This document shows, in pieces, positions 1,376 to 51,111 of a stretch of 64,000 nucleotides of DNA; positions within the stretch are counted from its first letter, which is position 1, and each line of letters begins with the position of its first letter. The position numbers were made by a program, and so were the translations under genes. Source of the stretch: Clostridia bacterium (lineage in GTDB: Bacteria; Bacillota; Clostridia; HGM11514); the NCBI GenBank assembly GCA_045586685.1, contig JAZNAU010000009.1, forward strand, positions 22,420 through 86,419, written 5' to 3'. The notes under the pieces are model-generated. The model saw nothing but the letters and a program-made list of their open reading frames with translations, ran no database searches and was not told where the DNA came from.

Positions 1376-1404
1376 TTTCAAGTACATAATAGATGCAGTT
1401 AATT

Positions 1405-1590
1405 TTAGCGATATACTCGCTATTGCTCGTGCGATATATTTGCTTCTCAAATTCGATATAACTCCACTTCGTTTTGTTGCGATATGATATAAATTCCTTT
1501 TTCTCGTTGCCGCAAGGCAACATATCGCATCAAAGATATATCGCGTACGAAGTACATATCGCAAATTCCGTCAGGAATTTATATCGATGA
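1405..1590. repeat. array of eight GCGATAT/ATATCGC heptamers (4 direct then 4 inverted) around central palindrome gttgccgcaaggcaac
   Basis: forward copies near 1408, 1431, 1453, 1479; reverse copies near 1522, 1538, 1556, 1581; spacing about 16-26 bp; central palindrome 1506-1521. Confidence 0.6.
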
Positions 1591-1622
1591 AAAAACGACA
1601 AGTCGAAACTTGTCGTTTTTTC
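1590..1622. terminator. bidirectional hairpin terminator abutting tRNA-Pro 3' end
   Basis: aaaaa-acgacaagtcgaaacttgtcgt-ttttt. Confidence 0.6.
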
Positions 1623-2496: not shown

Positions 2497-3621
2497 TCAA
2501 TCTCCCATTAACAAAACCTCTATTTCCTGTAATAGAAACAGAAAAAATTGTTTTCTTTTATCTTCCTGTACGCTAGCACCTACATATAAATCCCCTTGTG
2601 ACATCTGTTCATTTCCGATCAACACCCGTACTGTTCCCACCTTTTGTCCTTTTGTAAAAGGTGCCTTAAGTGATTTTGGCACCTCCACTTCCAAACGATA
2701 ATCAGGATGTTGATTTTGTTTACACACAAAGGATAATTTGTCTTCTGTATAAATTCCCACCGTTTCCTCTGTACCGCCTATGACGGGAAGCTCTTTTACA
2801 AAGCCCTTTTTTGGAATCACTTCCACTGTCTGGTATGAACCAAATGCATTGTCAAGCAGAAGTTTATGATCATTCCAGTCATCAGGTGCATTTAAGGTCA
2901 CTGCTACCACTTGCATTCCGTCCCGAGTGGCTGAAGATACCAAAGCACGACCGGTACTTTTGGTAAACCCTGTTTTGACACCGTCACAGCCCTCATACAT
3001 CCGCAGCATTTTGTTATGATTCACCAGTTTCTTATCATATTCCCTACCGGGCCAAGGAATGTTTCGTTCTCTTGTACTTACAATTTTGCAAAACCACTCA
3101 TTTTCCAATGCATAACAAGCAATCAGTCCCAAATCGTAAGCGGTAGTATAATGCCCTTCCTCCGGCAATCCGTTAGGATTGACAAAATGCGTCTGCGAAG
3201 CCCCAATCGCTTTCGCCTTCTCGTTCATCATACTGCAGAAATTTTCAACCGTTCCTCCCACATACTCAGCCAATGCCACTGCGGCATCGTTTCCGGAATT
3301 TAACATCAACCCGTAAAGGAGATTTTCCACAGTAATGGCCTCCCCTACCTCCAGCCACATGGAAGACCCTTCTACTCCTACCGCATTTTTACCAATTTTC
3401 ACAACTTCATGAAGCTCGGTGTTTTCTAACGTAACAATAGCAGTCATAATTTTTGTAGTACTTGCCATACCAAGTTGCTCATACGCGTTGGATTCAAACA
3501 ACACCTTCCGCGTACCTTGTTCCATTACCACTGCCGACTGCGCCGAATAACAAAATCCTTTTATGGGAATCAGAACTATCAACAGTAAAATCAATAAACT
3601 ATGTTTAAACAGAACAATCAC
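2497..3621 (-). CDS. D-alanyl-D-alanine carboxypeptidase (serine-type, PBP5/DacB-like) with signal peptide
   Basis: 374 aa; hydrophobic N-terminus; SxxK active site ASTTKIMT; SGN motif LNSGND. Confidence 0.8.
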   Translation of the reverse strand: MIVLFKHSLLILLLIVLIPIKGFCYSAQSAVVMEQGTRKVLFESNAYEQLGMASTTKIMTAIVTLENTELHEVVKIGKNAVGVEGSSMWLEVGEAITVENLLYGLMLNSGNDAAVALAEYVGGTVENFCSMMNEKAKAIGASQTHFVNPNGLPEEGHYTTAYDLGLIACYALENEWFCKIVSTRERNIPWPGREYDKKLVNHNKMLRMYEGCDGVKTGFTKSTGRALVSSATRDGMQVVAVTLNAPDDWNDHKLLLDNAFGSYQTVEVIPKKGFVKELPVIGGTEETVGIYTEDKLSFVCKQNQHPDYRLEVEVPKSLKAPFTKGQKVGTVRVLIGNEQMSQGDLYVGASVQEDKRKQFFLFLLQEIEVLLMGD

Positions 3622-7552: not shown

Positions 7553-8858
7553 TGCAATATTCCTCCTTATAGCCTCTCAAGGCTTCCAATGCTCTTTGAG
7601 AAATGGCTTCGTTTTTTTCACGTTTCCCTCTGATTCGCACTCCCAATGGTGGGAGCAAACCAAAATTTATATTCATAGGCTGAAAATCCGTAACCGATTG
7701 GTTACTCACATACCTTGCCAATGCACCAAGTGCAGTTTCCTCCGGCAAGGAGGGTAATTCCTTCCCATGTACCCTTGCTCCGCAGAACAAGCCTGCAGTA
7801 AGACCGGAGGCAGCAGATTCCGCATATCCTTCCACCCCTGTCATCTGTCCTGCAAAATAAAGGTTGGGTTTCCGTTTCAGCCGATAAGAATCGTCCAACA
7901 ATTTGGGAGAATTTAAAAATGTATTCCGATGCATCACACCATAACGGATAAATTCTGCATTCTCCAAACCGGGGATGAGAGAAAATACCCGCTTTTGTTC
8001 TCCCCATTTCAGATTAGTCTGAAATCCTACTATGTTATAAAGGCTTCCCGCTCCGTCATCCTGCCGCAACTGCACCACCGCATAAGGGACTTCGTCGCTA
8101 TGAGGATTTCTAAGACCCACAGGCTTTAGCGGACCGAACAGCATGGTCGCCTCTCCCCGCTTTGCCATTGCTTCAATGGGCATACAACCTTCAAATACAC
8201 TGCCCTTTTCAAACTCCTTTAACACCGCCGTTTCAGCCTGAATCAGCTCATGATAAAAACGGTCATACTCTTCTTTTGTCATAGGACAGTTTAGGTAATC
8301 CGCATCCCCCTTATCGTAACGAGAGGCACGGAATACTTTCGTCATATCAATAGAATCAAATGCAACAATGGGTGCTGCTGCATCATAAAAGTGAAGATAA
8401 TCCTCCCCTGTCAATCGGCTAATTTCAGGAATTAAGCCATCTGAGGTCAAGGGCCCTGTTGCCACAATCACAGGAACATCCTCAGGTAGCTTGGTGACTT
8501 CCTCTGACACTACCTCAATTAAGGGGTGAGACCGGAGGGTATCCGTAATCTCCTGCGAAAATGCTTCTCTGTCCACCGCCAAGGCTCCCCCTGCCGGAAC
8601 ACGATGCTTGTCCGCACTCCTCATAATCAGGGAATTCATTTCTCTCATTTCTTGTTTTAACAAACCCACTGCATTGGATAGCAGATCCGCCCGAAGGGAG
8701 TTACTGCAAACAAGTTCCCCAAACTTTTCGCTTTTGTGAGCCGGCGAGTATTTTTGAGGTTTCATTTCGTAAATCCGAACGGGAATCCCCATGTTTACCA
8801 GTTGCCATGCAGCCTCGCATCCCGCAAGACCGGCACCGATGACATGAACCGTCATCAT
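7539..8858 (-). CDS. trmFO: methylenetetrahydrofolate--tRNA-(uracil54-C5)-methyltransferase TrmFO (Gid)
   Basis: 439 aa; [20 protein letters not shown]-binding N-terminus and TrmFO-typical core. Confidence 0.85.
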
Positions 8859-20935: not shown

Positions 20936-21226
20936 AACCCTTATCTTGTCCCATCATATTTTAAAAGTCTCTGATGTTTATTATATCACAGGATGACGGA
21001 TAGGTCAATATTTTAAAGACTACGCTCGTATACTCCCCATAGCCTCTGCTTCTTTTTGATTTAAAAGAACCTATTTTTATGTTTCCATTTTCTTATCATC
21101 TTTCTTTCACGCTTTTCTTCATCGTATATCCAAGTCTTTCACACCTATCCAACGATAAAATAAAAAGAAATGAGTCCGGTACAATACCGAACTCATTTAC
21201 ATAAAAGACAATAAATTTAATAGTTC

Positions 21227-22657
21227 TTATTTTTGTGTTGCCTTCCACTCAGCATACTGACGTTCAATTTCGTCTTTTACGATCTGAGCACCAGCAAGCT
21301 CTCTCTTATCCCAATGTTTCTGGTAGGTTCCTTCGATATCCTCTACCACACCTCTTTTTAATCCGGTGGTATACTCTGTTACAGAATTCAAATTTGTAAT
21401 TTCTGTTTCTACAGGAGCAGTATCAAATACAAAACCAACATTTTCATCAACCGGTGCTTCTCTGTTCAGACGGTCTGTTTCTTCCCATACGCCTTCTTCA
21501 TAGCCGGGCATTAAGTAAGCAAGCAACTGATTTCCGATTCTGAATTCAGGAATATGATAACCATTTCCTTCGGTAGGTGTAATTCTGTTTCCGTCCTTGG
21601 TGTAGTTTACACCCTCAATTCCGTAAGCCAACAGGTTAAACAGATATTGGTCGGTGGTTACCAGTTCCAAAAGTTTTAATGCACGAACAGGATTTTTTGA
21701 TACACGGTTGATAGCAGTCAATGCACTTTGCATTTCATTTCTTCTTAAAATCATGTCACTGGTAGGTACTGCAATAACATCCCAATCATAGGAAATTGCG
21801 TGTTTTGCTTCTGCACCGGGCAAATGACGGTTATAACGAGAGAACAGTTTTCCTGCCTTCAAATAAGGATTTTCATCAAATACAACGTCCTGAGTAGTAA
21901 TTGCTTTTTCATACCAACGTCTTGCAACGTAATATTGAGGTAACAGTTCTTCCCGTCTGTCGGTTACTTCACCGTCTACAATACAGAAACCGCCCTTGAC
22001 AGGAGTCATGTTTACATCAAACTGGTTGAGTGTCATGCCGCTAATCATCTGCATACCAGGTTCGTTTGGTTTAACTACGTCATAGATTGCTTCCATATCT
22101 TCGTAAGAAGAAATTGATTTTACTTCATCTACCAGATCATATTTTTCAACTTCGTCCTTTTTAAACCATAAACCGCACTGGTGATACATAACCTGATACA
22201 TGGGAACTGCAAAAATCTGGTCATTTAATGTTAATGCATCCCAATACATTTCGTCAAAATAGTCATAAAGTTCGGGAGTTTCGGTTTTCAGAATTTCTGA
22301 CAAATCATAATAAGCACCCTTAAGAGCGTTGCCTTCATACGGATTCTGCCAGTTGGATGTGAACATCAAATCCCAAGAATCATCCTGAGCTGCCATCATC
22401 ATGCTTGTTTTTTGACCAAAATCACCAGGTTGGATAAACTGAATTTCCAAGGTTGCATTGATTTTTTCCAGCAAATACTTATTTACTTCTTCGATTACTT
22501 CATCGTATCCCGCCGGTTCGTCCAGAGCGATAGCCCATACCAGGTTTACCTGTTTGCTCATATCGTCCTGACTTGCTGTTTGCTTTGTTTCTCCGCAGGC
22601 ACAAACGGAAAGTGCCAGCAGTGCTGCCATTGCCATGGCTAACATTCTTTTTACCAT
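21227..22657 (-). CDS. ABC transporter extracellular solute-binding lipoprotein (orphan, no adjacent permease/ATPase)
   Basis: 476 aa; signal plus lipobox LALSVCAC; SBP family 1-like composition. Confidence 0.7.
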   Translation of the reverse strand: MVKRMLAMAMAALLALSVCACGETKQTASQDDMSKQVNLVWAIALDEPAGYDEVIEEVNKYLLEKINATLEIQFIQPGDFGQKTSMMMAAQDDSWDLMFTSNWQNPYEGNALKGAYYDLSEILKTETPELYDYFDEMYWDALTLNDQIFAVPMYQVMYHQCGLWFKKDEVEKYDLVDEVKSISSYEDMEAIYDVVKPNEPGMQMISGMTLNQFDVNMTPVKGGFCIVDGEVTDRREELLPQYYVARRWYEKAITTQDVVFDENPYLKAGKLFSRYNRHLPGAEAKHAISYDWDVIAVPTSDMILRRNEMQSALTAINRVSKNPVRALKLLELVTTDQYLFNLLAYGIEGVNYTKDGNRITPTEGNGYHIPEFRIGNQLLAYLMPGYEEGVWEETDRLNREAPVDENVGFVFDTAPVETEITNLNSVTEYTTGLKRGVVEDIEGTYQKHWDKRELAGAQIVKDEIERQYAEWKATQK

Positions 22658-23122
22658 TTTTTTCTTCCTCCTTAGATTTTTGGAATTTTACTTCCATGGT
22701 TTTATTTTGCTCATAAGCGCGGATGGTTGCATTGATGATATAAACAGGTGTTAAAAACCCCCATAAATTCTCAACGCCCTTCCCCGTTTGAGTCATGTGA
22801 TAAATCCCCTTAAGCCCGGCATATGATAAGCATTGCTTAAGGTAATGCTTTTGGAACTGCATTCATTGCTGTTTTTGTAAGCTGTTACACCAAAACCGCT
22901 TCCCCGAATGCAGTAACATTGTAATTCTCATAATGATATGTAATTTAAACTGTGTCTATGCCAATGTTATACATATAATCATTGGATGTTGCGTTCGTTT
23001 CTTCCTTGACAGATAAGGGCAATTTCCAACCATTCTGTATGGCAAAATCTCCCATTTTGTCAAGCTGTTTATTCTTTGTTACCACACATCGGATGATGTG
23101 TGGCAACAAAGAGAAAATACAA

Positions 23123-25630
23123 TTAGGAAATATCTGCAATCAATTCGCGAATCATAAATTCGTCATCTGCAGAAATCAGCTCGGTTTCTGCACTGATTAC
23201 GATCAAGCCTCTGTTATCCCAGAACACATTTTTACCAAGGGATTCTGCAATCGCACGCAGAGGAATCACCGTTCTGTCATTTAAGGTCTGAGCAGGAACA
23301 TCCAATTCGGTTACTGTTCCGTTCACATTCATTTCCTTGCTGTTAATCTTGAGAGTAATTGTGTTGCTTCCCATGGTAATGGTAACGGTTTCAGTTGCTC
23401 CGTCCCAACCTACATTTGCACCAAAGGATTCTGCGATGAAACGTACAGGAACTAAAGTTCTGTCATTTAATACCACAGGCTGAACTGCTTCGTTTGCAGG
23501 GTCAACCATGGTCTTATTTCCCATTGCAATCGCTTTGGGAGAACCAATCAACAGAGTCACCGCTTTTGATTCTACTGTTTCAACTACATCATCCAGCAAT
23601 CCAATCTTTTCAAAAGGAATAGGTTCAAAATCAGGCAACTTTGTGAAGATTTCACTGTCTTCTTTCAATGTAAAGTCTTTGTTTTTGTAATCAACAAAGC
23701 CCTTGGTATTAGAGATGTCAATATTATTTTTAAAGGTACCGTTATCCATTGCCACCTGATCAATTTTATAGCCTGGAGATTTATACTGTACATTGTTACG
23801 GATAATGTTACCCATGGGTTTTTCGGGGCTGTTTTCCAGAACGTTTGTTAACAAGGGATACTTTTCAGCCCAAATGCCTTCTTTATAAGGAACGTTCATT
23901 AAGTTCTGATAAATTTCGGAACCTTTTCCGGTATCCATCCAGCTCATACCACGGCTGTCCAGACGGAACGCCTGAGCACATTCCAGCATCAGGTTGTTTT
24001 CAAAAACATTGTCACGTCCGCCGCCCACCAGTGCAATCTGAGAGATCTTATACATAACGTTTCCATATACATGGGTGGAAGAATGCATATCATCCAAGTA
24101 CACCCCTGCTGCGGTCATACCGGTGTTGGTATCCATGAGAGTAACATCATGTAAATAGTTATAACGAATTACATTTCCTCTTTGAGTCCAGTCACGGCCG
24201 GTATAGATCATACCCTGGTCAGCAGTATTCTGACAAACAAAGCCGATATCGTTATATTCAATTATGTTGTCATTTCCTCTATAGAAAATAGCTTGTGCTG
24301 CACCGTATGCAATCTTGTTATGAGCAATTCTTGTACCAACGCTCTGGTTAATGTGGATTGCAGTATTAGCTCCATTAGAATCATACAACTGGAACCGTTC
24401 AATGGTGTTATTGATGATTTCGTTATTACCGGAGGTCAGTGTAATTCTGTCACCGCCCTGAAAATGAATGGCACCGCATCCCAGGTCATGGAAATAGTTA
24501 CTGCGGATTTCTGTGTTGGTACCTGTTCCGCGGACTGCAGTATCGGTAATCAAAGAAAATTCACAGTTATTGATACTTACATTGTCTACCTCATTTAATT
24601 CAATTCCGTAATTTAAGTTCTTGGTAAAGTGAATTCCGGAAATGGTAACATTCTTAGCCTTATCAACCTTAATAAAAGGTTTGTCGCTGGTTACCAGTGC
24701 AATCTGATTGGAAGAAGTAATTTCCTTTTCAGAGTACAAATACAGGATTCCATTTTCCCGATCCAAGTACCATTCACCGGGAGCATCCAATTCTTCAAGC
24801 AGGTTATAGAAATAAAAACGCTGATTTTGGGCTACACTGTAGTAAGCCGGAAATTCAGATTTAATAATGTTTTTGTTATCAAAGTCAATTTGAACGACAA
24901 AGCTCTGTCTGTGCCAGTCGTGCATCCAATAACCTTCAACGTAAAATTCGCTGTTAGCAGTCCACTTATTCAGACGGCTATCGGTTGTACGAATCTGAAA
25001 TCCTTCCAGATTTTTCAAAGGTGCTGTCATGTTTCGAGGATCAGAACCTTGTTTTATTACTTCATCAATATTCAGATAGCCCTCATTGGGATATCTTGCA
25101 ATCGTCTGCAATTTGCCATCTACATACAGCATTGCAGTGTTACTTTCCGCAACTGTCTTTTGAGAACCGTCTTCTAATGTTTCATAGGAAGTATATCCCA
25201 CTACACCGTAATCGGTAATGCCATTTGCCTTCAGGTCAGCAGCATAAATTTTATCTTTTGCATTTTTGGTTACAATTCTGTCCAAAATGGCAGTATCGGT
25301 TACTTTTTTAAACCAGCTGCTATCCAGCTCATTTGTACCTGTTACCGCTACTTTTTCGTCGCCATAAGCACGAATGGTAAGTCCGTTATGTTTTTGGGTT
25401 AAGGTGACAGTATCTTTAATCAGATAATTGCCTTCTCTTAAGTAAATAGTCGCTTGCTTTCCTTCTGCCAGTTCAACTGCTTTTGCCAAAGTTGCCAAGG
25501 GCGCATCAGCAGAGCCGACAGCAGAATCACTTCCCGTTGGTGCAACATAATACACTGCATCTGCAGCCAAAACAGGGGCACACAAGGAGGTGATCAATAA
25601 AACACATAGTAATAATGCTATTTTTTTCAT
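23123..25630 (-). CDS. secreted right-handed parallel beta-helix protein with two C-terminal copper-amine-oxidase N-terminal-like (stalk) domains
   Basis: 835 aa; signal peptide MKKIALLLCVLLITSLCAPVLA; YYVAPTGSDS..G N-terminal motif; repeated NN.I/NN beta-helix rungs; C-terminal repeats PVRFIAESFGANVGWD and PLRAIAESLGKNVFWD. Confidence 0.7.
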   Translation of the reverse strand: MKKIALLLCVLLITSLCAPVLAADAVYYVAPTGSDSAVGSADAPLATLAKAVELAEGKQATIYLREGNYLIKDTVTLTQKHNGLTIRAYGDEKVAVTGTNELDSSWFKKVTDTAILDRIVTKNAKDKIYAADLKANGITDYGVVGYTSYETLEDGSQKTVAESNTAMLYVDGKLQTIARYPNEGYLNIDEVIKQGSDPRNMTAPLKNLEGFQIRTTDSRLNKWTANSEFYVEGYWMHDWHRQSFVVQIDFDNKNIIKSEFPAYYSVAQNQRFYFYNLLEELDAPGEWYLDRENGILYLYSEKEITSSNQIALVTSDKPFIKVDKAKNVTISGIHFTKNLNYGIELNEVDNVSINNCEFSLITDTAVRGTGTNTEIRSNYFHDLGCGAIHFQGGDRITLTSGNNEIINNTIERFQLYDSNGANTAIHINQSVGTRIAHNKIAYGAAQAIFYRGNDNIIEYNDIGFVCQNTADQGMIYTGRDWTQRGNVIRYNYLHDVTLMDTNTGMTAAGVYLDDMHSSTHVYGNVMYKISQIALVGGGRDNVFENNLMLECAQAFRLDSRGMSWMDTGKGSEIYQNLMNVPYKEGIWAEKYPLLTNVLENSPEKPMGNIIRNNVQYKSPGYKIDQVAMDNGTFKNNIDISNTKGFVDYKNKDFTLKEDSEIFTKLPDFEPIPFEKIGLLDDVVETVESKAVTLLIGSPKAIAMGNKTMVDPANEAVQPVVLNDRTLVPVRFIAESFGANVGWDGATETVTITMGSNTITLKINSKEMNVNGTVTELDVPAQTLNDRTVIPLRAIAESLGKNVFWDNRGLIVISAETELISADDEFMIRELIADIS

Positions 25631-25903
25631 TTTATTTTTCCTCTCTTTCTTCTTTTCTTTCCTTATTTTTTCACCATTTTGAGTTGGAAACCTAAGTCAT
25701 TTTTTCTGTTGTTTTTTCGTTTTTTTGCCTTCCTTTCTTTGTAAAATTTATTGTAAAGAGAAAATATGTACCTACCTCTCCAACATACTTTTATTATAAT
25801 CTTTTTATGCAAAAAAGACAATACGAAAAATTGATTAAAAAATTATGTTTTTTTGTGATTTCCCTTCCGGAATATTTTTTCAAAAGAGACTTGATTTTTT
25901 CAT

Positions 25904-26821
25904 ATGAATCATGTAAAATATAATAAAAGGAAGTGCACAACAATGATTGTAAATAAACAGAATAATTATAGTTTATATAGTAATCCCGATACAAATCTAT
26001 TATCCAATCAAATTTGTTTCTCTCTGTTTGAGCATACTTACTTTGAATGTTCAAAAGAGGTTACCACCGTTCACAGCAACAAACGATTTAACAATACTAA
26101 TTTAATTTATTATATCATCGAAGGTGGCGGAACCATCCTATTGTCGGATCGAAAAATTCCTATTGTTCCCGGAAAAATTTATTTTTTCCCCTGTGTAAAA
26201 CCCGAAAATTACACCTCTGTAGTTCAACCGGATACAAAAAAAGTACAGATTCAATTTCAATGCAATCTGTACAGTAATCAGGATATTTTCGCTGATGTGC
26301 TTTATCCCCAATGTCTGGAGGATACTCACCATCTGATTCCTATTATAAAAGAAACGGTTCTTTCAAAAAACCCAGGAACACAAGTCCTGCTTTCTCCTTT
26401 GATTCAGTTAAGTATTGCTCCCTTATTTAAGCTAGTCGAGCAATCCTTAAGCGAGCAACTGATAAAAGGAAAAAAATACAGTACTCTCTTTGACTATATT
26501 AACCATAATTTATACATTGACCTGACCACAGAAAAATTGGCTAAGGAAACCGGTTTTTCTGTTTACTCCCTGACTCATACCATTCCAAAAGAAATGGGAT
26601 TTACCTTTAAAAAGTACATTACAAACAGAATTTTACGGTTGGTTTGCTTAGATTTAATTTATACAGAAACCTTAATCCGCAACATCGCTTTTAAGTACCA
26701 CTTCTCTACCGAAGGATATTTTTCAGATTGGTTTTTCAAATTAACCGAAAAGCGCCCCAAGGAATATCGTCAAAAATTCCGTTCTGCAGGGAATTACAGT
26801 TTTTATCAAAATCATATTTAA
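25904..26821 (+). CDS. AraC family transcriptional regulator (cupin + HTH)
   Basis: 305 aa; C-terminal AraC HTH (..LAKETGFSVYSLTHTIPKEMGFTFKKYITNRILRLVCLDL..); very AT-rich. Confidence 0.75.
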   Translation: MNHVKYNKRKCTTMIVNKQNNYSLYSNPDTNLLSNQICFSLFEHTYFECSKEVTTVHSNKRFNNTNLIYYIIEGGGTILLSDRKIPIVPGKIYFFPCVKPENYTSVVQPDTKKVQIQFQCNLYSNQDIFADVLYPQCLEDTHHLIPIIKETVLSKNPGTQVLLSPLIQLSIAPLFKLVEQSLSEQLIKGKKYSTLFDYINHNLYIDLTTEKLAKETGFSVYSLTHTIPKEMGFTFKKYITNRILRLVCLDLIYTETLIRNIAFKYHFSTEGYFSDWFFKLTEKRPKEYRQKFRSAGNYSFYQNHI

Positions 26822-26911
26822 CGATTGAACATTTAGATTTTTAAGGTAACCGATTTTTGAGAAGTTTTACTAATAAATTAAGCAGAACCATAGAGATATT
26901 TAATTTATAAT

Positions 26912-27106
26912 AATTTGACAACTTCGTTGTCATGAATTGGTTTTACCATGAATTGTTGCTGTCGCAACATGAATTGAATTGCCTTAATGCACCCTAAGGT
27001 GCAATTCATGAGCCGTAGGCTTAATTCATGAAATCGCAGATTTCAATTCGTGCCGTCAGGCAATTTATTGAAAAAGCGACTTGTCAAAACAAGCCGCTTT
27101 TTCTGG
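26912..27106. repeat. repeat R, copy 1 (about 195 bp), ending in hairpin terminator
   Basis: near-identical to 30548-30726 apart from one 15-bp indel and 4 substitutions; contains TGACAACttcgGTTGTCA palindrome and multiple ATGAATTG/CAATTCAT octamers. Confidence 0.9.
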
Positions 27107-27120
27107 AAGAACCCAATGGT

Positions 27121-28560
27121 TTAGATGCCACAATTTATTAAGTAATTATGTTTCATCGGTCCCGAGCCATTTCCCAAATCAAGACCTTCTAAAAGTGCAT
27201 ATGATATATATTCTTTCGCTCTTTTAACCGAGTCTTTGAGGTTAAGTCCTTTTGCAAGATTTGATGCTATTGCACTGGAAAGAGTGCATCCGGTTCCATG
27301 TGTGTTTGGGTTATCAATCCTTTTTCCATCGAACCATACAAACTTACCACTTTCATACAAAAGATCATTTGCATCATTTATACTATGCCCACCTTTCAAC
27401 AAAACGCAGCACCCATAGTTTTTCTCAATGAATTCTGCTGCTTTTATCATATCGTCATTACTCTTGATTTTCATATCTGATAAAATTTCCGCCTCAGGAA
27501 TATTGGGTGTCACAACAGTTGCAATGGGTAAGAGTTTTTGAGTTAATGTTTTTACGGCATCTGTCTTCATAAGAGTTGAGCCGCTTGTTGCAACCATAAC
27601 CGGATCTACAACAATATTCTTTGCATTATAAAATTTAAGTCTATCTACAATTACTTTAATAAGTTCGCTTGAGGATACCATCCCGATTTTTACACTATCG
27701 GGAAATATATCTTGAAATACTGCATCAATTTGTTCTTTTAAAAATTCGGGAGTAGTTTCCTCAATCGCTCTTACTCCAAGTGTATTTTGAGCTGTAAGTG
27801 CAGTAATGGCACTCATAGCATAAACACCATTCATTGTCATAGTTTTGATATCTGCCTGAATACCTGCACCACCACTTGAATCACTGCCGGCAATAGTTAA
27901 TACCGTTTTCATTTTGGTGGCAAAGCAGAAGCTTCCGAAATCCTTTATGTAATAATCTGAAATTTCTTTCATCTGCTCTTGACTTAGTTCGTGTTCATCA
28001 TAAACTGCCGCAACCTTAAATCCATCATCTTTAGCAGTTTTAAGTGCATGAACCACATCTTCAAAAACTACAGTTTCTGTTTTTTCTGTACCAAGATATT
28101 CAAGTGCTTTACGATAAATATGAGATGTGGTTTTGTCATAACCTACTTCTGCACAGGAGAATATTTCAGAAAAGTATTCCAGAACCCCCAATCGTTTTAA
28201 CACATCTTCTGCAATAGCTCTGTCCGTCACAGTTGCAACACACATTTTTACACCTTTATAATGTAACCTTTTTAGAAAATCTTTCACACCTGATTTCAAC
28301 GTTACCTTTGTCCGATAAATTTCAGCCACCATATTATTTATATCGTTAACAATTTCTTGGGCAGAAAGATTAACACCATAATGCTCGCGATAATATTCTG
28401 CGGCTTGCTGGAGTGTAAATGTTTTAAATGCTTCTGCAAGGTTTTCTTTGGGTTCTTTCCCAAGTGTTCTTAAATAATCCTCGCCAAACGTGTCCCATAT
28501 CCACATAGAATCTATAATTGTTCCGTCTAAATCAAATATTGCACCCTTAAACACCTTCAA
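27121..28560 (-). CDS. thiD: fusion protein: N-terminal HAD-superfamily hydrolase + C-terminal hydroxymethylpyrimidine/phosphomethylpyrimidine kinase (ThiD)
   Basis: residues 1-200 FDLDGTIIDS... (HAD motif I); residues about 205-479 VLTIAGSDSSGGAGIQADIKT...GTGCTLSSAIA (ThiD ribokinase-fold signature). Confidence 0.8.
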   Translation of the reverse strand: MKVFKGAIFDLDGTIIDSMWIWDTFGEDYLRTLGKEPKENLAEAFKTFTLQQAAEYYREHYGVNLSAQEIVNDINNMVAEIYRTKVTLKSGVKDFLKRLHYKGVKMCVATVTDRAIAEDVLKRLGVLEYFSEIFSCAEVGYDKTTSHIYRKALEYLGTEKTETVVFEDVVHALKTAKDDGFKVAAVYDEHELSQEQMKEISDYYIKDFGSFCFATKMKTVLTIAGSDSSGGAGIQADIKTMTMNGVYAMSAITALTAQNTLGVRAIEETTPEFLKEQIDAVFQDIFPDSVKIGMVSSSELIKVIVDRLKFYNAKNIVVDPVMVATSGSTLMKTDAVKTLTQKLLPIATVVTPNIPEAEILSDMKIKSNDDMIKAAEFIEKNYGCCVLLKGGHSINDANDLLYESGKFVWFDGKRIDNPNTHGTGCTLSSAIASNLAKGLNLKDSVKRAKEYISYALLEGLDLGNGSGPMKHNYLINCGI

Positions 28561-29191
28561 CCACCTGCTTTGTTAATTCTTTTAATTCCGATGTAGCTTT
28601 TTGAATATTGTCTGCAGCAAAAATTGCACTGATAACTGCAACTCCATCTATTCCGCTTCCACTGAGTTGCAAAACATTGCCTGCTCCAATGCCACCAATG
28701 GCAACCACAGGAATGCTTACAGCCTCGCATATTGCTTTAAGTGTTTCATAGCTTACATCATCGGCATCTGCTTTTGAGGCTGTACTAAACACAGCCCCTA
28801 CACCTAAATAATCAGCGCCCATTTTTTCAGCAAGCAAAGCTTGTTCTACCGTTTGTGCGGATACGCCAAGAATTTTATTATCTCCAATGCTATCTCTGAC
28901 CAATCCTGCTTCCATATCCTTTTGCCCTACATGAATCCCATCTGCATTTGCCTTGACAGCAATATCTACATTGTCATTGATAACAAAAGGAACATTATAC
29001 TTTCTACAAAGTTCTTTTATTTCAAAAGCCTCTTTGAGAAATGCTTCATCATCTAATTCCTTTTCTCGAAGTTGAATAAAAGTTGCTCCGCCCCTAAGTG
29101 CTTCTTCTACTTGCTGATAAAGAGTTCTGTTTCCAATCCATGTACAGTCGGTAACAGCATATAAAAGTAAATCTTTTTTATCTAACTTCAT
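28547..29191 (-). CDS. thiE: thiamine-phosphate synthase
   Basis: 214 aa; LLLYAVTD..IQLREK..GADYLGVGAVFST... typical ThiE. Confidence 0.85.
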   Translation of the reverse strand: MKLDKKDLLLYAVTDCTWIGNRTLYQQVEEALRGGATFIQLREKELDDEAFLKEAFEIKELCRKYNVPFVINDNVDIAVKANADGIHVGQKDMEAGLVRDSIGDNKILGVSAQTVEQALLAEKMGADYLGVGAVFSTASKADADDVSYETLKAICEAVSIPVVAIGGIGAGNVLQLSGSGIDGVAVISAIFAADNIQKATSELKELTKQVVEGV

Positions 29192-29999
29192 ATTTCGCTC
29201 CTTTGTTTAACATATCTGCATCCATATTATAAATTGCATCAATTATGCGATTTCTCAAAGTGGAGTTTCCTTCTCCTGTCTTTAAATCTGTATAACCAAT
29301 TTCACCTGCAAGTCCCATCATACAAACTGCTGCTGCAACTGCTTTTGTTTTGTCATTGGGATTGGCTACAGCGAAAGCTGTTGCCAGTGCTGAAAGCTGA
29401 CAACCTGTACCTGTAATTTTACTCATTTCAGGTCTGCCGTTACGGATAACATAGCATTTTTCACTATCTGCCACAAGGTCAATTGCACCTGTAATTGCTA
29501 TAACAGCATTTGCTTTTTGAGAAAAATTTTTCGCAAAAGCTACCATGTCATCAAGATTATCTTCTGTTACTGTGTCAGCTGTATCTGCATCAACACCCTT
29601 TGTCGTTCCGCATCCAAGTGCTAAAGTTTTAATCTCTGAAATATTCCCACGAATAACATCAAACTTAATTGTATTCATAAGTTTAATTGCTGTATCTGTG
29701 CGAAGTTTACTTGCACCGGCTCCTACAGGATCAAGTAAAACTATATGGCCGACTTCATTCGCTTTTACACCTGCAATAAACATTCCCTCAATACTTCTTT
29801 GGTTCAAAGTACCGATGTTGATATTAAGCCCTCCACAAATCGATGTAATATCGGCTACATCCTCCGGTTCGTCCGACATAATCGGGCTACTTCCACAAGC
29901 AAGCAAGACATTTGCTACATCATTTACCGTAACATAGTTTGTGATGTTATGCACAAGCGGTGCTTTTCTCCTTACATTTTCCATACAGTTTCCTAACAT
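29178..29999 (-). CDS. thiM: hydroxyethylthiazole kinase
   Basis: 273 aa; PLVHNITNYV..GSSP.M N-terminus typical of ThiM; AGAGGT RBS. Confidence 0.85.
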   Translation of the reverse strand: MLGNCMENVRRKAPLVHNITNYVTVNDVANVLLACGSSPIMSDEPEDVADITSICGGLNINIGTLNQRSIEGMFIAGVKANEVGHIVLLDPVGAGASKLRTDTAIKLMNTIKFDVIRGNISEIKTLALGCGTTKGVDADTADTVTEDNLDDMVAFAKNFSQKANAVIAITGAIDLVADSEKCYVIRNGRPEMSKITGTGCQLSALATAFAVANPNDKTKAVAAAVCMMGLAGEIGYTDLKTGEGNSTLRNRIIDAIYNMDADMLNKGAKYEVR

Positions 30000-30065
30000 T
30001 TTTTACCTCTTTCTGCCGCAATTTATCGGCTGTTTATTAACTTAATAACAAACCTTGCCAAACAA

Positions 30066-30098
30066 AAAAGGAAGCTACCGATTTGGTAACTTCCTAAA
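30066..30098 (-). terminator. TPP riboswitch expression-platform terminator (attenuator)
   Basis: minus-strand hairpin ggaaguuacc-aaauc-gguagcuucc followed by uuuuuuguuu, between the aptamer and the thiM RBS. Confidence 0.7.
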
Positions 30099-30117
30099 AA
30101 GTTCTTTGTTCCTCCTA

Positions 30118-30215
30118 ACACTATGTATCAGGCATCCCTACGTTGGCATTATCCAAATCAGGTTCTCGGTCGAAGGTCATACCTTCCTCTCAGCCTGTAA
30201 TACAAGCTCCCGTTT
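30118..30215 (-). promoter_or_regulatory. TPP (THI-box) riboswitch
   Basis: minus strand reads ...GGCUGAGAGG...AACCUGAUUUGGAUAAUGCCAACGUAGGGAUG..., matching the THI-element consensus CUGAGA / ACCUGAUCUGGAUAAUGCCAGCGUAGGGA. Confidence 0.9.
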
Positions 30216-30230
30216 ATTAAGTTTAAACAT

Positions 30231-30259
30231 ATTATATCACTTTTCAAAGTATATTTCAA
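30231..30259 (-). promoter_or_regulatory. promoter of the thi operon (TTGAAA-17-TATAAT)
   Basis: hexamers on the minus strand immediately upstream of the riboswitch. Confidence 0.6.
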
Positions 30260-30329
30260 TAGATTTTGATAAATTATTTTAAAGAATATAAAAACTGAAT
30301 AATTAGATGTGTCATCTAAATCATTCGGT

Positions 30330-30530
30330 TTCTATGGTTCCCCCTGTTGGACTCAAACCAGACACGTTTGCAACCTCAATTCAATTTCTCCAACCCGGCG
30401 GCTCATTTCATCGTGTTGTGGCACAGCCCTACGCCGTCGTTGGTTCTTCCGCCGGCAGCACTCCGGCTCGGTCCTCTTTGGTTAACGCCGCATATGCGGC
30501 TGTTTACCCTTAATAATAGTTGGCTTTTGG
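30330..30530. other. GC-rich about 200-nt non-coding segment with several stable hairpins; candidate structured RNA of unknown identity
   Basis: markedly GC-rich relative to flanks; hairpins gccggcagcactccggc and gccgcatatgcggc; only short spurious ORFs. Confidence 0.4.
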
Positions 30531-30547
30531 CTACATAATATTTTAAT

Positions 30548-30726
30548 GATTTGACAACTTCGTTGTCATGAATTGTTGCTGTCTCAACATGAATTGAATT
30601 GCCTTAATGCACCCTAAGGTGCAATTCATGAGCCGTAGGCTTAATTCATGAAATGGCAGATTTCAATTCGTGCCGTCAGGCAATTCATTGAAAAAGCGAC
30701 TTGTCAAAACAAGTCGCTTTTTCTGG
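30548..30726. repeat. repeat R, copy 2 (about 179 bp), its terminator hairpin abuts the 3' end of the CAU tRNA
   Basis: see copy 1; ends ...gcgacttgtcaaaacaagtcgctttttctgg immediately followed by the tRNA CCA end. Confidence 0.9.
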
Positions 30727-30800
30727 TGGGCCTTCAGGGATTCGAACCCGGGACCAACCGGTTATGAGCCGGTTGCTCTGACCAACTGAGCTAAAGGCCC
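30724..30800 (-). tRNA. tRNA with CAU anticodon; the body resembles tRNA-Ile2 (lysidine-modified), elongator tRNA-Met not excluded
   Basis: reverse complement GGGCCTTTAGCTCAGTTGGTCAGAGCAACCGGCTCATAACCGGTTGGTCCCGGGTTCGAATCCCTGAAGGCCCACCA; similarity to B. subtilis tRNA-Ile(CAU) is recalled from memory. Confidence 0.8.
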
Positions 30801-30914
30801 GTTTCACAAATAACATTATAATTATACACGATTTTTCCTTATTTGTCAATAGCTAAATTATACGAAAAAGGCAATTTCCAAGACGATTTTTAAGCCCCGT
30901 CTTTTCCCTAAGAA

Positions 30915-30953
30915 TATAAAAAAGACACTAACCAATGGTTGATGTCTTTTTTC
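30915..30953. terminator. hairpin terminator abutting tRNA-Leu 3' end
   Basis: aaagaca-ctaaccaatggttga-tgtcttt plus T-run. Confidence 0.5.
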
Positions 30954-31040
30954 TGGTGCAGAAGACGGGACTTGAACCCGTACGACCAAACGGTCACTAC
31001 CCCCTCAAAGTAGCGTGTCTGCCAATTCCACCACTCCTGC
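30954..31040 (-). tRNA. tRNA-Leu (anticodon GAG), class II with long variable arm
   Basis: reverse complement GCAGGAGTGGTGGAATTGGCAGACACGCTACTTTGAGGGGGTAGTGACCGTTTGGTCGTACGGGTTCAAGTCCCGTCTTCTGCACCA; anticodon loop UUGAGGG. Confidence 0.85.
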
Positions 31041-31149
31041 ATACAACAGAAATAGTATATCAGCATTTTATCCATTTGTCAAGTCCCTTTTTTAATTTTC
31101 ATCAATTTTTTATGCCTGTCTTTTCCGTTATGTAACCTTGATTGCATCT

Positions 31150-34100
31150 TTATTCCCCATCACTAAACTGCAATTCAAAAATTCGTTGCAATACAACCTT
31201 GATGTTGGAAAGAATTCTATCCGCATCCTGTACCGCTGCTTTTCTAAAGGTAAGACAAGGCTTATTCCCAGCTGAGAACAGTAATTTATATTCTGCAATC
31301 ACCTGACTAAGTGATTTCATAAGATCGGGGGAAATTTCTTGCCAGTAAAAATTCAAATTTTCTCCAACCTGACGAATTTCCGTTATCCCCACCTTACCCG
31401 CAGTATTTTTCACCAGTGCAACCTCCAGCAAATTCAAGACACATGCAGGGGTATCCCCAAAACGGTCACACAGTTCATCTGCTACCTCATTATATTCTTC
31501 ACGGGTTGCAATTTTTGCAATTCTGCGATACAAATCCATTCTTGTCTGTTCACCGGAAACATAGGTTTTGGGAAGATATGCATCAATCTGCAAATCAATC
31601 TGCACCTCGGTTATTTCGTTCTCAATCATTTCGCCGTTTCTGCGACGGACTTCTTCTTCCAGCATATCACAGTACAGCTCATAACCTACCTGATCCATAT
31701 GCCCATGTTGCTCCGCACCCAACACGTTCCCCGCTCCTCTAATTTCCAAATCACGCAAAGCAATTTTAAAGCCGGACCCGAACTCTGTAAAATCACGCAA
31801 TGCAATCAGCCGTTTCTGAGCCGCATCATCCAGCACCTTATCCTTTTGATACATTAGATAAGCATACGCCATTTTATCCGACCGCCCTACCCGTCCTCTT
31901 AGCTGATATAGCTGAGAAAGACCAAGACAATCCGCATTTTCAATTAAAATGGTGTTCACATTGGGAATATCAAGACCTGTTTCAATAATGGTAGTACAAA
32001 CCAGTACATCAATCTCCCCTTCCGATACCGCCAGCATAATTTTTTCCAACTGTCCTTCCTTCATTTTTCCGTGAGCGAATTCCACACGGGCAGAAGGAAC
32101 CATTTTGCTGATTTTATGGGCAAGCGAAGAAATCCCCTCCACACGATTATACAAATAATACACCTGTCCGCCGCGGGACAATTCGCGAACAATGGCATCC
32201 TGTATCACCGAATCATTATGCTCCATCACATATGTCCGTACAGGATAGCGGTCTCTTGGGGGTGTGGAAATGACACTGATATCCCGAATTCCAATCATAG
32301 ACATATGTAGAGTTCTGGGAATGGGGGTTGCGGTCATGGTAAGCACATCTACATCCTGTTTCATTTCCTTTAGCCGTTCCTTGTGGGCAACTCCAAACCG
32401 TTGCTCCTCATCCACAATCAAAAGTCCTAAAGAGGGAAATTTCAAATCCTTCTGCAAAATCCGATGTGTGCCAATAATAATATCAATCTGTCCTCGTTCC
32501 AGCCGTTCTAAAATCTCCCGTTGTTCTTTTGCAGTACGGAATCTTGACAGCATTTCTACGCGAATCGCAAAGGGTTCCATCCGCTTTTTAAAATTCTGAT
32601 AATGCTGTAATGCCAAAATGGTAGTAGGTGCCAGATATGCCACCTGCTTATTATCCATAACACATTTGAAAGCAGCACGAATGGCAACCTCTGTTTTGCC
32701 GTAACCCACATCACCGCACAAAAGACGATCCATAGGAATAGGCCGTTCCATATCTTTTTTCACATCATCAATACACTTGATCTGATCCTCCGTTTCCGTA
32801 TAGGGAAAGGCTTCCTCAAATTCTTGTTGCCAAGAAGTGTCCTCAGAAAAGGAATATCCTTCTATATTCTGTCGGGCGGCATAAAGGCGAATGAGTCCGT
32901 CCGCCAGATCCGCACAACTTGCACGGACACGGCTTTTTGTATTATTCCATTCTTTTCCGCCCAGCTTATTCACCTTAAGAGAGGTTTTGGCTCCTACATA
33001 TTTATGGAGCAAATCCAGTTGGGTTGCAGGAACATACAGCATATCCGTTCCGCCATAGCGAATTTTAAGATAATCCTTTGTCACACCGCCTGCCGTCACA
33101 AGTTCCTGACCTAAATACTGACCGATTCCGTGATTGACATGAACCACATAATCTCCTGCATTTAAATCGGTAGCAACATTGAGAATCTTTTGCTGGTCTT
33201 TGGACTTTCGTCTCTTTTTTTCTTGCTTTTTCTTGTTGATATCGCGGTCACTGATGACCGCCAGCCCAATGGAAGGATACTCAAATCCACCGCTCAGGCT
33301 TCCCGTTGTGACAGAAAGAGAAACTGGCTCGCTCTGTGGATTTTCGTCAAAAACAGCAGGCAACCCGTCTTGTTGAAGATGATCAGACAAAATCATTCCG
33401 CGGCTTCTGCTTCCTGCCAATATTATAACACGATACCCCTGTTCCTGGTACAGTTGTAAATCTGCCGTCAACAGCGTCATGTTCCCATTGTATGTACTTT
33501 GATTTTTACATTCCAGCGTTACTAACTTTTTATAAGAAATTCCTGTGTTACTCTGCAGTAAGGGGCAAAAGCTCATGACCGTATTCCCCTTTAACCGATG
33601 AATCAATCCCTCGTATTCCAATGAATAATCTCCATCAACACCGCCCAAACTTCCTTGCTCCATCATAACAGAAACCGTTTGATGAACCTCCCACGACGCA
33701 TTTTCCGCTTTTTCCCGCAATAATGCAGGGTCATCAAGAAGAACAAGAGCATCACGGTCAAAATAATCCGTCAGCAAGGGTAACTTATCATAAAACAAGG
33801 GTAGATATTTATCATCAGATGGAAAATAACCAATTTCTCGCAGTCGTTCTGCATCCTTGGGACAAAACGGTTCTATTTTCGTTGCTACCTGTGCCCCCCG
33901 TTCCTTTGTATACAGCACCTCACGGGCAGGAGGAATGGTCACAGAAGAAATCCGTTCTACAGAAAGCTGAGTAAATACATCAAAGGTCCGCACTGTATCC
34001 ACTTCATCACCAAACAGTTCAATCCGCACAGGTTGTTCCAAATGAATCGGAAAAACATCCAAAATACCGCCTCTTAAGGCAAACTGGCCCTGTCCCTCTA

Positions 34101-50727: not shown

Positions 50728-50990
50728 AAACTTCTTCCTTATTCACAATTACTTATTACTTTTCAAAAATCCACAAGTCTTTTTAGGGAAACGTGAATAG
50801 CTCATAAAAAAAGAACACCTGACAGTGTTCTTTTTAGTTTTTCAAAGCAGAACAATATAGATACATAAAAAAACAAACTCGCAAAAGCAAGTTTGCACCT
50901 AACTTCTTCCTTATTCGCTATTACCTATTACTTTCCAAAAATAGACAAGGACGATTTTTAGGGAATAGTGAATAGTGAAGAGTGAATAGG
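50728..50990. repeat. two diverged tandem copies (period about 173 bp) of an about 75-90 bp element, each followed by a hairpin terminator
   Basis: copy A 50728-50800 and copy B 50901-50990 share aacttcttccttattc.c.attac.tattactttt/ccaaaaat..acaag...tttttagggaa..gtgaatag; the GTGAATAG motif is iterated 4 times in copy B. Confidence 0.7.
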
Positions 50991-50999
50991 TAAAAAGTA

Positions 51000-51034
51000 A
51001 AATCGACAAGACTCTGGCGAATCTTGTCGATTTT

Positions 51035-51035
<1 letters not shown>
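51000..51035. terminator. hairpin terminator abutting tRNA-fMet 3' end
   Basis: atcgacaaga-ctctggcga-atcttgtcgat + ttttt. Confidence 0.6.

Positions 51036-51111
<76 letters not shown>

Follow-up and report, generated by a model that had tools for sequence, protein, structure and literature searches.

Two near-identical repeats that enclose a thiamine salvage operon beside a tRNA gene raise the question of whether the repeats are the recombination sites of a mobile cassette or something else. The locus lies in a stretch of 64,000 nt from Clostridia bacterium (HGM11514; assembly GCA_045586685.1, contig JAZNAU010000009.1, positions 22,420 to 86,419 of the forward strand), referred to here as the window. 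All coordinates without a locus label are positions in the window, and the region under study spans 26912-30726. An initial annotation of this DNA had proposed that a circular cassette recombined into a chromosomal copy of the repeat, here termed R. Our analysis points to another answer, which we consider reasonably probable: R is a dispersed structured non-coding element and no attachment scar, and the thi operon arrived within a 4.07-kb block that was acquired as one piece.

The basic arrangement was confirmed. The two copies, R1 and R2, bracket a minus-strand unit that comprises a promoter, a thiamine pyrophosphate (TPP) riboswitch, thiM, thiE, and a HAD::thiD fusion. Repeat search and blastn gave 97.5% identity over a main block of 160 nt (26947-27106 versus 30567-30726; E 3e-76) with the 4 substitutions that had been counted before, and 94% identity over a second block of 35 nt (26905-26939 versus 30541-30575). 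The single indel reported between the copies is also present, but its length is 16 bp rather than 15 bp: one extra unit, CATGAATTGGTTTTAC, sits between the two blocks in R1. Alignment with other family members extends the conserved sequence of R1 to the left as far as about 26879. At the other end, R2 stops as described at the tRNA-CAU gene, its final tgg being the CCA of that tRNA. R1 ends in the identical ...tttttctgg, 14 nt past the thiD stop codon, and is followed by the thiD 3' flank. The identity of the copies ceases at the CCA, and R shares with the tRNA only the 3 to 4 nt of CCA(G).

The basic R unit is about 90 nt long and contains four small hairpins (stems of 3 to 6 bp, loops of 3 to 4 nt), with the motif (C)AATTCATGA after each hairpin. 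In the long form, to which R belongs, two such units stand in inverted orientation, ATGAATTG arrays preceding CAATTCAT arrays. Read on the plus strand, R starts with a first array in which each hairpin is followed by (C)ATGAATTG, passes through a short center into the second array of four hairpins, and ends in a terminal hairpin, a 15-bp palindrome between an A-run and a T-run. By its form, this palindrome is a putative bidirectional intrinsic terminator. Relative to shuffled sequence, fold z-scores were -7.2 and -8.2 on the two strands. In an alignment of 34 copies, second-array hairpins were 95.8% paired, compared with 16-40% for slid controls. Eight pairs were altered on both sides, in 29 cells, a level reached by 0 of 500 shuffles, and such compensatory changes speak for the hairpins. 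When a covariance model was made from the second array, it matched the first array as well, on the opposite strand. In R1, it scored 96.8 bits at 26981-27070 (plus) and 43.7 bits at 26897-26976 (minus); in R2, 92.3 bits at 30601-30690 (plus) and 37.2 bits at 30536-30655 (minus). It follows that the long form contains one unit of about 90 nt twice, in inverted orientation, and short forms at other loci consist of a single unit.

R is not restricted to the neighborhood of thiamine genes. A 20-mer from R was searched against species-representative genomes, and an independent pattern from another part of R was searched against metagenome contigs. The loci compared, labeled L001, L002, and so on, come from Clostridia metagenome-assembled genomes (MAGs), metagenome contigs, and one IMG/VR viral contig. 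R-like copies, 83-91% identical, were present in 9 different Clostridia MAGs; metagenome contigs yielded about 26 further copies, of which 22 came from one assembly, and the viral contig yielded two. The family thus occupies about 35 unrelated loci, and none of them carries thi genes. With the covariance model, R was absent from the other thi loci and from the syntenic loci of relatives. The initial annotation had itself named the occurrence of R at many unrelated loci without cargo as evidence against its proposal. Its suggestion of an undescribed cassette type is not supported, since the R family is found without thi cargo and the thi unit is found without R in four loci (L001, L002, L014, and L015).

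Most R copies lie away from tRNAs, and they occur in either orientation relative to neighboring genes. Some are located upstream of genes that were labeled enolase, DnaA, and small alarmone synthetase by eye from N-terminal translations, without a profile search; others are found 3' of assorted genes, in tandem, or beside other small repeats. Many copies are within 100-200 nt of contig ends, as expected for repeats that break assemblies. No integrase was seen beside any copy examined. The flanks of 37 copies showed no common target-site duplication, and no defined termini were seen. No copy with a gene between its two halves was present among the fetched loci, and no systematic search for one was made; the copy in L013 has a 180-nt non-coding insert in its center. 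Full-text literature queries returned nothing relevant for R motif strings or tRNA-linked repeats in Clostridia. Other small repeat families stand beside R copies in the metagenome contigs L021, L035, L036, L041, and L050, for example GGGCGGAGYAGAACCCCGCCCCTAC hairpins and TGTCATTCTC...GAGAATC inverted repeats, and intergenic repeats of several families seem to abound in these genomes.

The closest Rfam family is Gut-1 (RF01706), which was described solely from human gut metagenomes and which its authors took to be a non-coding RNA of no known function (Weinberg et al. 2010, PMC2864571). Rfam gave no match to R above threshold. The Gut-1 scores of 19.2 bits in the window, 28.4 in L009, 30.3 in L013, and 26.3 in L042 are below the gathering score of 50 bits, so R does not count as a member by the Rfam rule. 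The cmscan alignment spans the whole model (1-77) in the order hairpin, AUGAAUU, hairpin, AUGAAUU, hairpin, that is, the three-hairpin plan of Gut-1. Both R and Gut-1 are non-coding, occur in anaerobe or gut-type metagenomes, and combine small hairpins bearing UUCG-like loops with a repeated single-stranded motif. This motif is (G)UGAAAU in Gut-1, with GUGAAAU between hairpins, and AUGAAUU in R. R differs in having four hairpins per unit and usually an inverted pair of units, in that it can carry a terminator and a tRNA-CCA junction, and in having sister families with quite different motifs. R is clearly the same kind of object as Gut-1, though no Rfam member.

It is possible, if rather doubtful, that R and its kin are Gut-1-like genes for small non-coding RNAs that act in trans or sequester a protein, with the 9-nt motifs as binding sites and the bracketing of the thi operon incidental. 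Besides the repeated subthreshold matches of 19-30 bits to a family judged to be RNA and the compensatory changes in the hairpins, this explanation would fit the conservation of R across species, which is higher (83-91% nucleotide identity) than that of thi coding DNA (79%). It would also fit the terminator at the 3' end of the plus strand and a TATAAT box located 6-7 nt ahead of the first hairpin in trailer-type copies, which are described below. However, most R copies lack a recognizable promoter, both strands of the symmetric element fold equally well, the mismatches in the hairpins do not single out a strand, and copies face either way relative to their neighbors. The motif also varies among sister families, and a single protein partner for all of them is therefore less plausible. 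The arrays may act as a Gut-1-like RNA or as folded single-stranded DNA, or they may be merely selfish.

R is also close in kind to the modular, structured intergenic repeats known from Firmicutes as BOX, RUP, and SPRITE (Streptococcus pneumoniae; Croucher et al. 2011, PMC3049150). Like them, R is small, non-coding, multicopy, and intergenic, is modular with a varying number of subunits, has extensive secondary structure that likely affects cotranscribed genes, and contains no transposase. It comes in short and long forms, R1 has one 16-bp unit more than R2, several contigs hold 2 copies, and 22 contigs of one assembly hold the repeat. There is no sequence similarity between R and these repeats. 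They hardly occur outside one species group, whereas R keeps 83-91% identity across different Clostridia families and extends to a phage contig. Arrays of motif and mini-hairpin and exact abutment of a tRNA CCA are not known to be features of BOX. R also resembles miniature inverted-repeat transposable elements in its size of about 100-200 bp, inverted-repeat symmetry, non-autonomy, intergenic position, and occurrence several times per contig or assembly. For R, no clear terminal inverted repeats with target-site duplication and no partner transposase were found; its inverted symmetry resides in the 9-mer arrays and not in the termini, and no presence/absence polymorphism of R by itself was seen.

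A subset of copies is linked to tRNA genes. Six copies with an A-tract terminator and a final CTGG abut the CCA ends of tRNAs: tRNA-Met (L004), tRNA-Lys (L009), tRNA-Pro (L010), tRNA-Thr-GGT and tRNA-Thr-CGT (both L037), and tRNA-CAU in the window. These trailer copies are 86-91% identical behind four different tRNA species, with no similarity past the CCA and no shared tRNA segment. L037 has the order tRNA-Thr / R / protein gene / tRNA-Thr / R, and it has two R copies because each tRNA has its own trailer. Pairing of the 9-mers with the anticodon loop of the adjacent tRNA was considered and rejected, the same R being found behind Met, Lys, Pro, and Thr tRNAs.

Sister elements share this architecture but use other 9-mers, and in every family the forward and reverse motifs are mutually complementary. 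One, R', is located elsewhere in the window behind tRNA-Pro(TGG), and its terminator is 97% identical to that of the L004 R copy behind tRNA-Met; part of R' recurs in L013 at 7638-7672. Others were found in L019 (14375-14520 and 23257-23403) and in L009 (3735-3930, adjoining an R copy). Directly upstream of an ATATCGA-type array in L019 lies a promoter-like site (23206-23234; TTGTAA, 17-nt spacer, TATAAT, with TG, 10/12 matches), which hints that some arrays may be transcribed on their own and which the proponent of an RNA function could cite. The arrangement of TATAATGATTT and hairpin in L019 resembles the start of a trailer-type R.

The exact start of trailer copies at a tRNA CCA could suggest that R arrays are attachment-site arms or scars of tRNA-targeting integrative elements, the 9-mers being arm-type integrase sites and the CCA-ending modules displaced tRNA 3' ends. 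Units that finish in CCA-terminated pseudo 3' ends, copies in a viral contig, motifs that differ between families as different integrases would need, and the insert of about 190 nt in L019 and L053 that is flanked by direct repeats of 18-22 nt from the tRNA-Leu 3' end would all agree with such an origin. We consider it very improbable. No integrase accompanies any copy examined, the same R follows four tRNA species without a shared tRNA segment, most copies are away from tRNAs, and one viral contig holds two copies. Furthermore, covariation in hairpins is not expected of double-stranded protein-binding sites.

The origin of the thi block was addressed by comparison with the two closest relatives retrieved, L053 and L019. 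L053 is collinear with the window on both sides, over 21223-26821 (binding protein, beta-helix protein, and AraC-type gene) and 30889-33270 (tRNA-Leu and mfd). In place of window 26822-30888, it has 227 bp, made up of a terminator, 22 nt that repeat the tRNA-Leu 3' end, and a GC-rich piece. The nearest relative is L019 (Mfd 95% identical, about 90% nucleotide identity), whose collinearity with the window starts at mfd and is lost beyond tRNA-Leu(GAG); it has the replacement piece of L053 (91% identity over 421 nt). The 3' side of tRNA-Leu(GAG) is the point at which the relatives diverge from the window. A junction of tRNA, R, and mfd lacking the thi genes, which the initial annotation had suggested looking for, was not seen: in L053 and L019 the whole block is missing, so that tRNA-CAU, R1, and R2 are absent along with the thi genes. 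These two relatives therefore give no sign that a resident tRNA-R site was the target.

The composition of the thi genes is foreign. As noted earlier, they are richer in AT at third codon positions, with GC contents at these positions of 0.27, 0.24, and 0.25 compared with 0.395 +/- 0.036 (minimum 0.33) for 40 other genes of the window. ThiD falls into more than 120 clusters at 77-86% identity, whereas Mfd yields five clusters of at least 78% followed by a drop to 50%. From this contrast and the third-position composition we infer that the thi unit spread horizontally. The earlier idea of acquisition therefore stands with respect to foreign composition, absence from two relatives, and varied neighborhoods, but not with respect to R as the recombination site of a circular cassette.

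According to that proposal, a circular molecule R-X-T2-thi recombined by a Campbell-type R x R crossover into a chromosomal R beside a tRNA, R being the portable site of an integrase-less cassette (X and T2 are the segments between R2 and the thi promoter). R1 and R2 are closer to each other than to other copies, and their ends are distributed as a single crossover inside R would leave them: R1 has the canonical distal end and no tRNA, and R2 has the tRNA junction and a non-canonical distal end. The foreign nature of the thi unit is also in keeping with it. We nevertheless judge it improbable. No resident target is seen in L053 or L019, the unit occurs without R and R without the unit, and no recombinase is encoded. 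L037 presents the same picture of tRNA, R, gene, tRNA, and R with nothing mobile implied. As the initial annotation stated, no integrase or transposase lies inside the unit; by Pfam scans of all open reading frames at 500-35172, no integrase, recombinase, or transposase is present in the first 35 kb of the window either, and the neighbors are housekeeping genes.

Genomic islands can occupy the 3' ends of tRNA genes, and integrase-less derivatives flanked by attachment (att) sites, the CIME-type elements, also exist. The block is like them in comprising foreign DNA beside tRNAs, with direct repeats around cargo and CCA-ending pseudo 3' ends, and the site 3' of tRNA-Leu varies between relatives. 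It differs in that R lies outside the tRNA and shares only the CCA, in that no integrase is present, and in that a tRNA gene is part of the acquired block; R, for its part, is dispersed as a family and is not a locus-specific att sequence. We found no tyrosine or serine recombinase, the repeats are not part of a tRNA 3' end, and no empty site with the tRNA and one repeat was seen in L053 or L019. An integron attC site was rejected because no GTTRRRY core is present at the R ends (by reading), the operon has its own promoter, and there is no integrase. A composite transposon and a pdif-type module were rejected because of the lack of insertion sequence elements and Xer-like sites, respectively.

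The boundaries of the thi unit do not coincide with R. Homology with L001, L014, and L015 covers window 27096-30337 in each case, at 78-87% overall, and the leader is 95% identical to that of L015. The promoter-like site is conserved in L001, L002, and L015. The upstream end of the conserved unit is T2, a terminator hairpin with exact 25-mer matches in the same three loci. The CCA ahead of T2 belongs to tRNA-Arg(ACG) in L002, to tRNA-Met(CAT) behind tRNA-Leu in L015, to a 26-nt copy of the thiD end module in L001, and to X in the window. At the downstream end stands the GGCATCTAAACC...CCA end module, and the terminator behind it differs in each of four genomes. In the window the final two codons of thiD and its stop codon come from this module. 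Hairpin arrays in L009 (3905-3930; GGCATCTAAACCATTCAGCTCACCA plus terminator) and L019 (23420-23444) are closed by the same module, which is also present in L001 (296-321 and 3531-3557), L015, and L014; a similar CCA-ending end, TATGGTTCTGCTTTCCCA plus terminator, closes R itself in L037 and L009.

The position of T2 behind tRNAs and of the end module before varied terminators suggests that the operon is nested in the remains of a trailer unit, two pieces being related to another trailer family, and that it travels among tRNA-linked contexts. Trailer units would then form chains of terminator, arrays, CCA-ending end, and next terminator, and R1 would be the trailer unit that follows the one holding the thi operon. 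In L001, a perfect 26-nt direct repeat, GGCATCTAAACCATTCGGCTCTTCCA, at 296-321 and 3531-3557 flanks the thi unit. We read both copies as probable end modules of chained trailer units, and a site-specific origin is also possible. A thi unit with terminal inverted repeats or a circle junction was considered and dropped: L002 and L015 show that the upstream piece is T2 behind a tRNA, and L009 shows that the downstream piece is the end module of an array. A bolder generalization, to which we assign a low probability, is that Gut-1-like arrays form a superfamily of CCA-anchored trailer modules that chain behind tRNAs, each regenerating a CCA-ending pseudo 3' end, and that serve as integrase-less carriers of whole operons between tRNA loci and species.

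In the reading that we favor, a dispersed R and a block acquired as one piece, R2, the trailer of tRNA-CAU, would act as its terminator. R1, by its position, would terminate both the thi operon and the convergent AraC-type gene and would insulate the acquired operon. The TPP aptamer scores above the gathering score and is located directly upstream of thiM; it would control the operon by premature termination at 30095-30069, the terminator there being the inferred expression platform. All parts of the block, from tRNA-CAU and its promoter through R2, X, T2, and the thi operon to R1, would have entered together at the variable 3' flank of tRNA-Leu(GAG). The most likely route is foreign-DNA recombination that would need no dedicated recombinase and would be helped by trailer repeats common to many related genomes.

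Several points weigh against this account. R1 is the sole trailer-type copy seen that is not beside a tRNA. R1 and R2 are mutual closest relatives, at 97.5% identity compared with at most 91% to any other copy, and their identity indicates a recent common origin or homogenization; some duplication or homogenization involving R thus did take place. An R x R event in an unsampled donor is possible, although it is not needed. The account does not explain X or the origin of the CCA-ending modules. The gain of the block in the lineage of the window is deduced by parsimony over two relatives together with composition, and the proposed terminator and insulator roles of R are read from the form of the sequence. 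Mismatches in the hairpins (8 G-T versus 17 A-C, ten of the 17 from one pair) favor no clear strand, and R copies in the host genome were counted within the window. The coordinates of all features are given in Table 1.

Table 1. Features of the thi block, its flanks, and a sister element (positions in the window)
Feature	Positions	Strand	Basis or remarks
R' sister element behind tRNA-Pro(TGG) (1623-1698, -)	1400-1622	+	Motif GCGATAT, then ATATCGC; fold z-score -6.6
Lineage-specific block of 4,067 bp: R1, thi operon, T2, X, R2, tRNA-CAU and promoter	26822-30888		blastn versus L053 and L019
R1, full-length tRNA-trailer-type element	26879-27106	+	Repeat search, blastn, family comparison; order: distal end GCAGAACCATAGAG..., first array hairpins + CATGAATTG, second array hairpins + AATTCATGA, palindromic terminator, ctgg
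Palindromic terminator of R1	27070-27103
CCA-ending end module GGCATCTAAACCATTGGGTTCTTCCA	27104-27129	-	Comparison with L009, L019, L001, L015, L014
HAD phosphatase::ThiD (hydroxymethylpyrimidine [HMP] / HMP-P kinase) fusion	27121-28560	-	Pfam PF13419 1e-24, PF08543 2e-95
thiE, thiamine-phosphate synthase	28547-29191	-	Pfam PF02581 3e-67
thiM, hydroxyethylthiazole kinase	29178-29999	-	Pfam PF02110 2e-68
Intrinsic terminator between aptamer and thiM	30069-30095	-	11-bp stem, then TTTTTGTTTG (terminator scan)
TPP riboswitch aptamer	30118-30223	-	RF00059, 61.2 bits (gathering score 54.3 bits)
thi promoter-like site	30231-30259	-	TTGAAA, 17-nt spacer, TATAAT, with TG; 11/12 matches
T2 terminator hairpin, starting right after CCA	30290-30334	-	Arms with ATTTAGATG / CATCTAAT
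X, GC-rich, about 200 nt, tRNA-like 3' end GGTTTGAGTCCAACAGGGGGAACCA	30335-30540	-	Composition
R2, trailer of tRNA-CAU	30541-30726	+	Lacks one 16-bp unit and the canonical distal end
Palindromic terminator of R2	30690-30723
tRNA, CAU anticodon (elongator Met or Ile2)	30724-30800	-	ARAGORN; Rfam tRNA, 69.1 bits
Consensus promoter of tRNA-CAU	30821-30849	-	TTGACA, 17-nt spacer, TATAAT; 12/12 matches
tRNA-Leu(GAG), conserved flank	30954-31040	-	ARAGORN; 90-91% identity to L019 and L053

The segment X has a GC content of about 0.5, compared with 41% for the genome, and its end resembles the T-arm, acceptor, and CCA of a tRNA, or a decayed tRNA 3' end. As structured RNA, it gave no Rfam match at E values up to 5 and a fold z-score of only -1.15. 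It contains three low-complexity open reading frames, none of them credible as a gene, and has no homologue in any fetched locus or in the viral contigs. For the HAD::ThiD fusion, a public copy (P0001) is 100% identical over 477 amino acids, with an annotated start 2 codons shorter.

The thiamine operon represents a horizontally acquired salvage operon set among common repeats, with no dedicated mobility machinery. It is in itself ordinary, and the R class, an under-described relative of Gut-1, is the more interesting part. R links the orphan Gut-1 motif to a larger class with context, namely, tRNA trailers with terminators, phage contigs, inverted-pair forms, and sister families, and this wider class makes the function testable. 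R elements also break MAG assemblies and mark variable spots beside tRNA genes, which matters for reading gene gain in gut and anaerobe Clostridia.

The spot taken by the block already bears the scar of earlier events. Behind tRNA-Leu(GAG), L019 (14134-14345) and L053 (5486-5709) contain a gene-free, GC-rich insert of about 190 nt between direct repeats of 18-22 nt that match the tRNA 3' end with its CCA, an arrangement that looks like a miniature integration scar without a gene. A small zinc-ribbon/TM2 (DZR) gene is located between mfd and tRNA-Leu in L019 (13453-13974) and L053 (5851-6394) and is missing from the window (31113-31166), which points to another indel at this locus. Within the block and close to each of its ends, at 26836-26845 and 30877-30886, lies a 10-bp direct repeat, GATTTTTAAG, which may be junction microhomology or a chance occurrence in AT-rich sequence.

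A further trailer, with GTGAATAG / CTATTCAC-type repeats, occupies 50729-51034 of the window and adjoins a tRNA-Met (51035-51111, minus strand) that was read by eye as an initiator. It contains an internal duplication of 75 nt (50729-50800 versus 50901-50975, 84% identical), and the same heptamer repeats are found in the viral contig locus L018 at 3440-3500.

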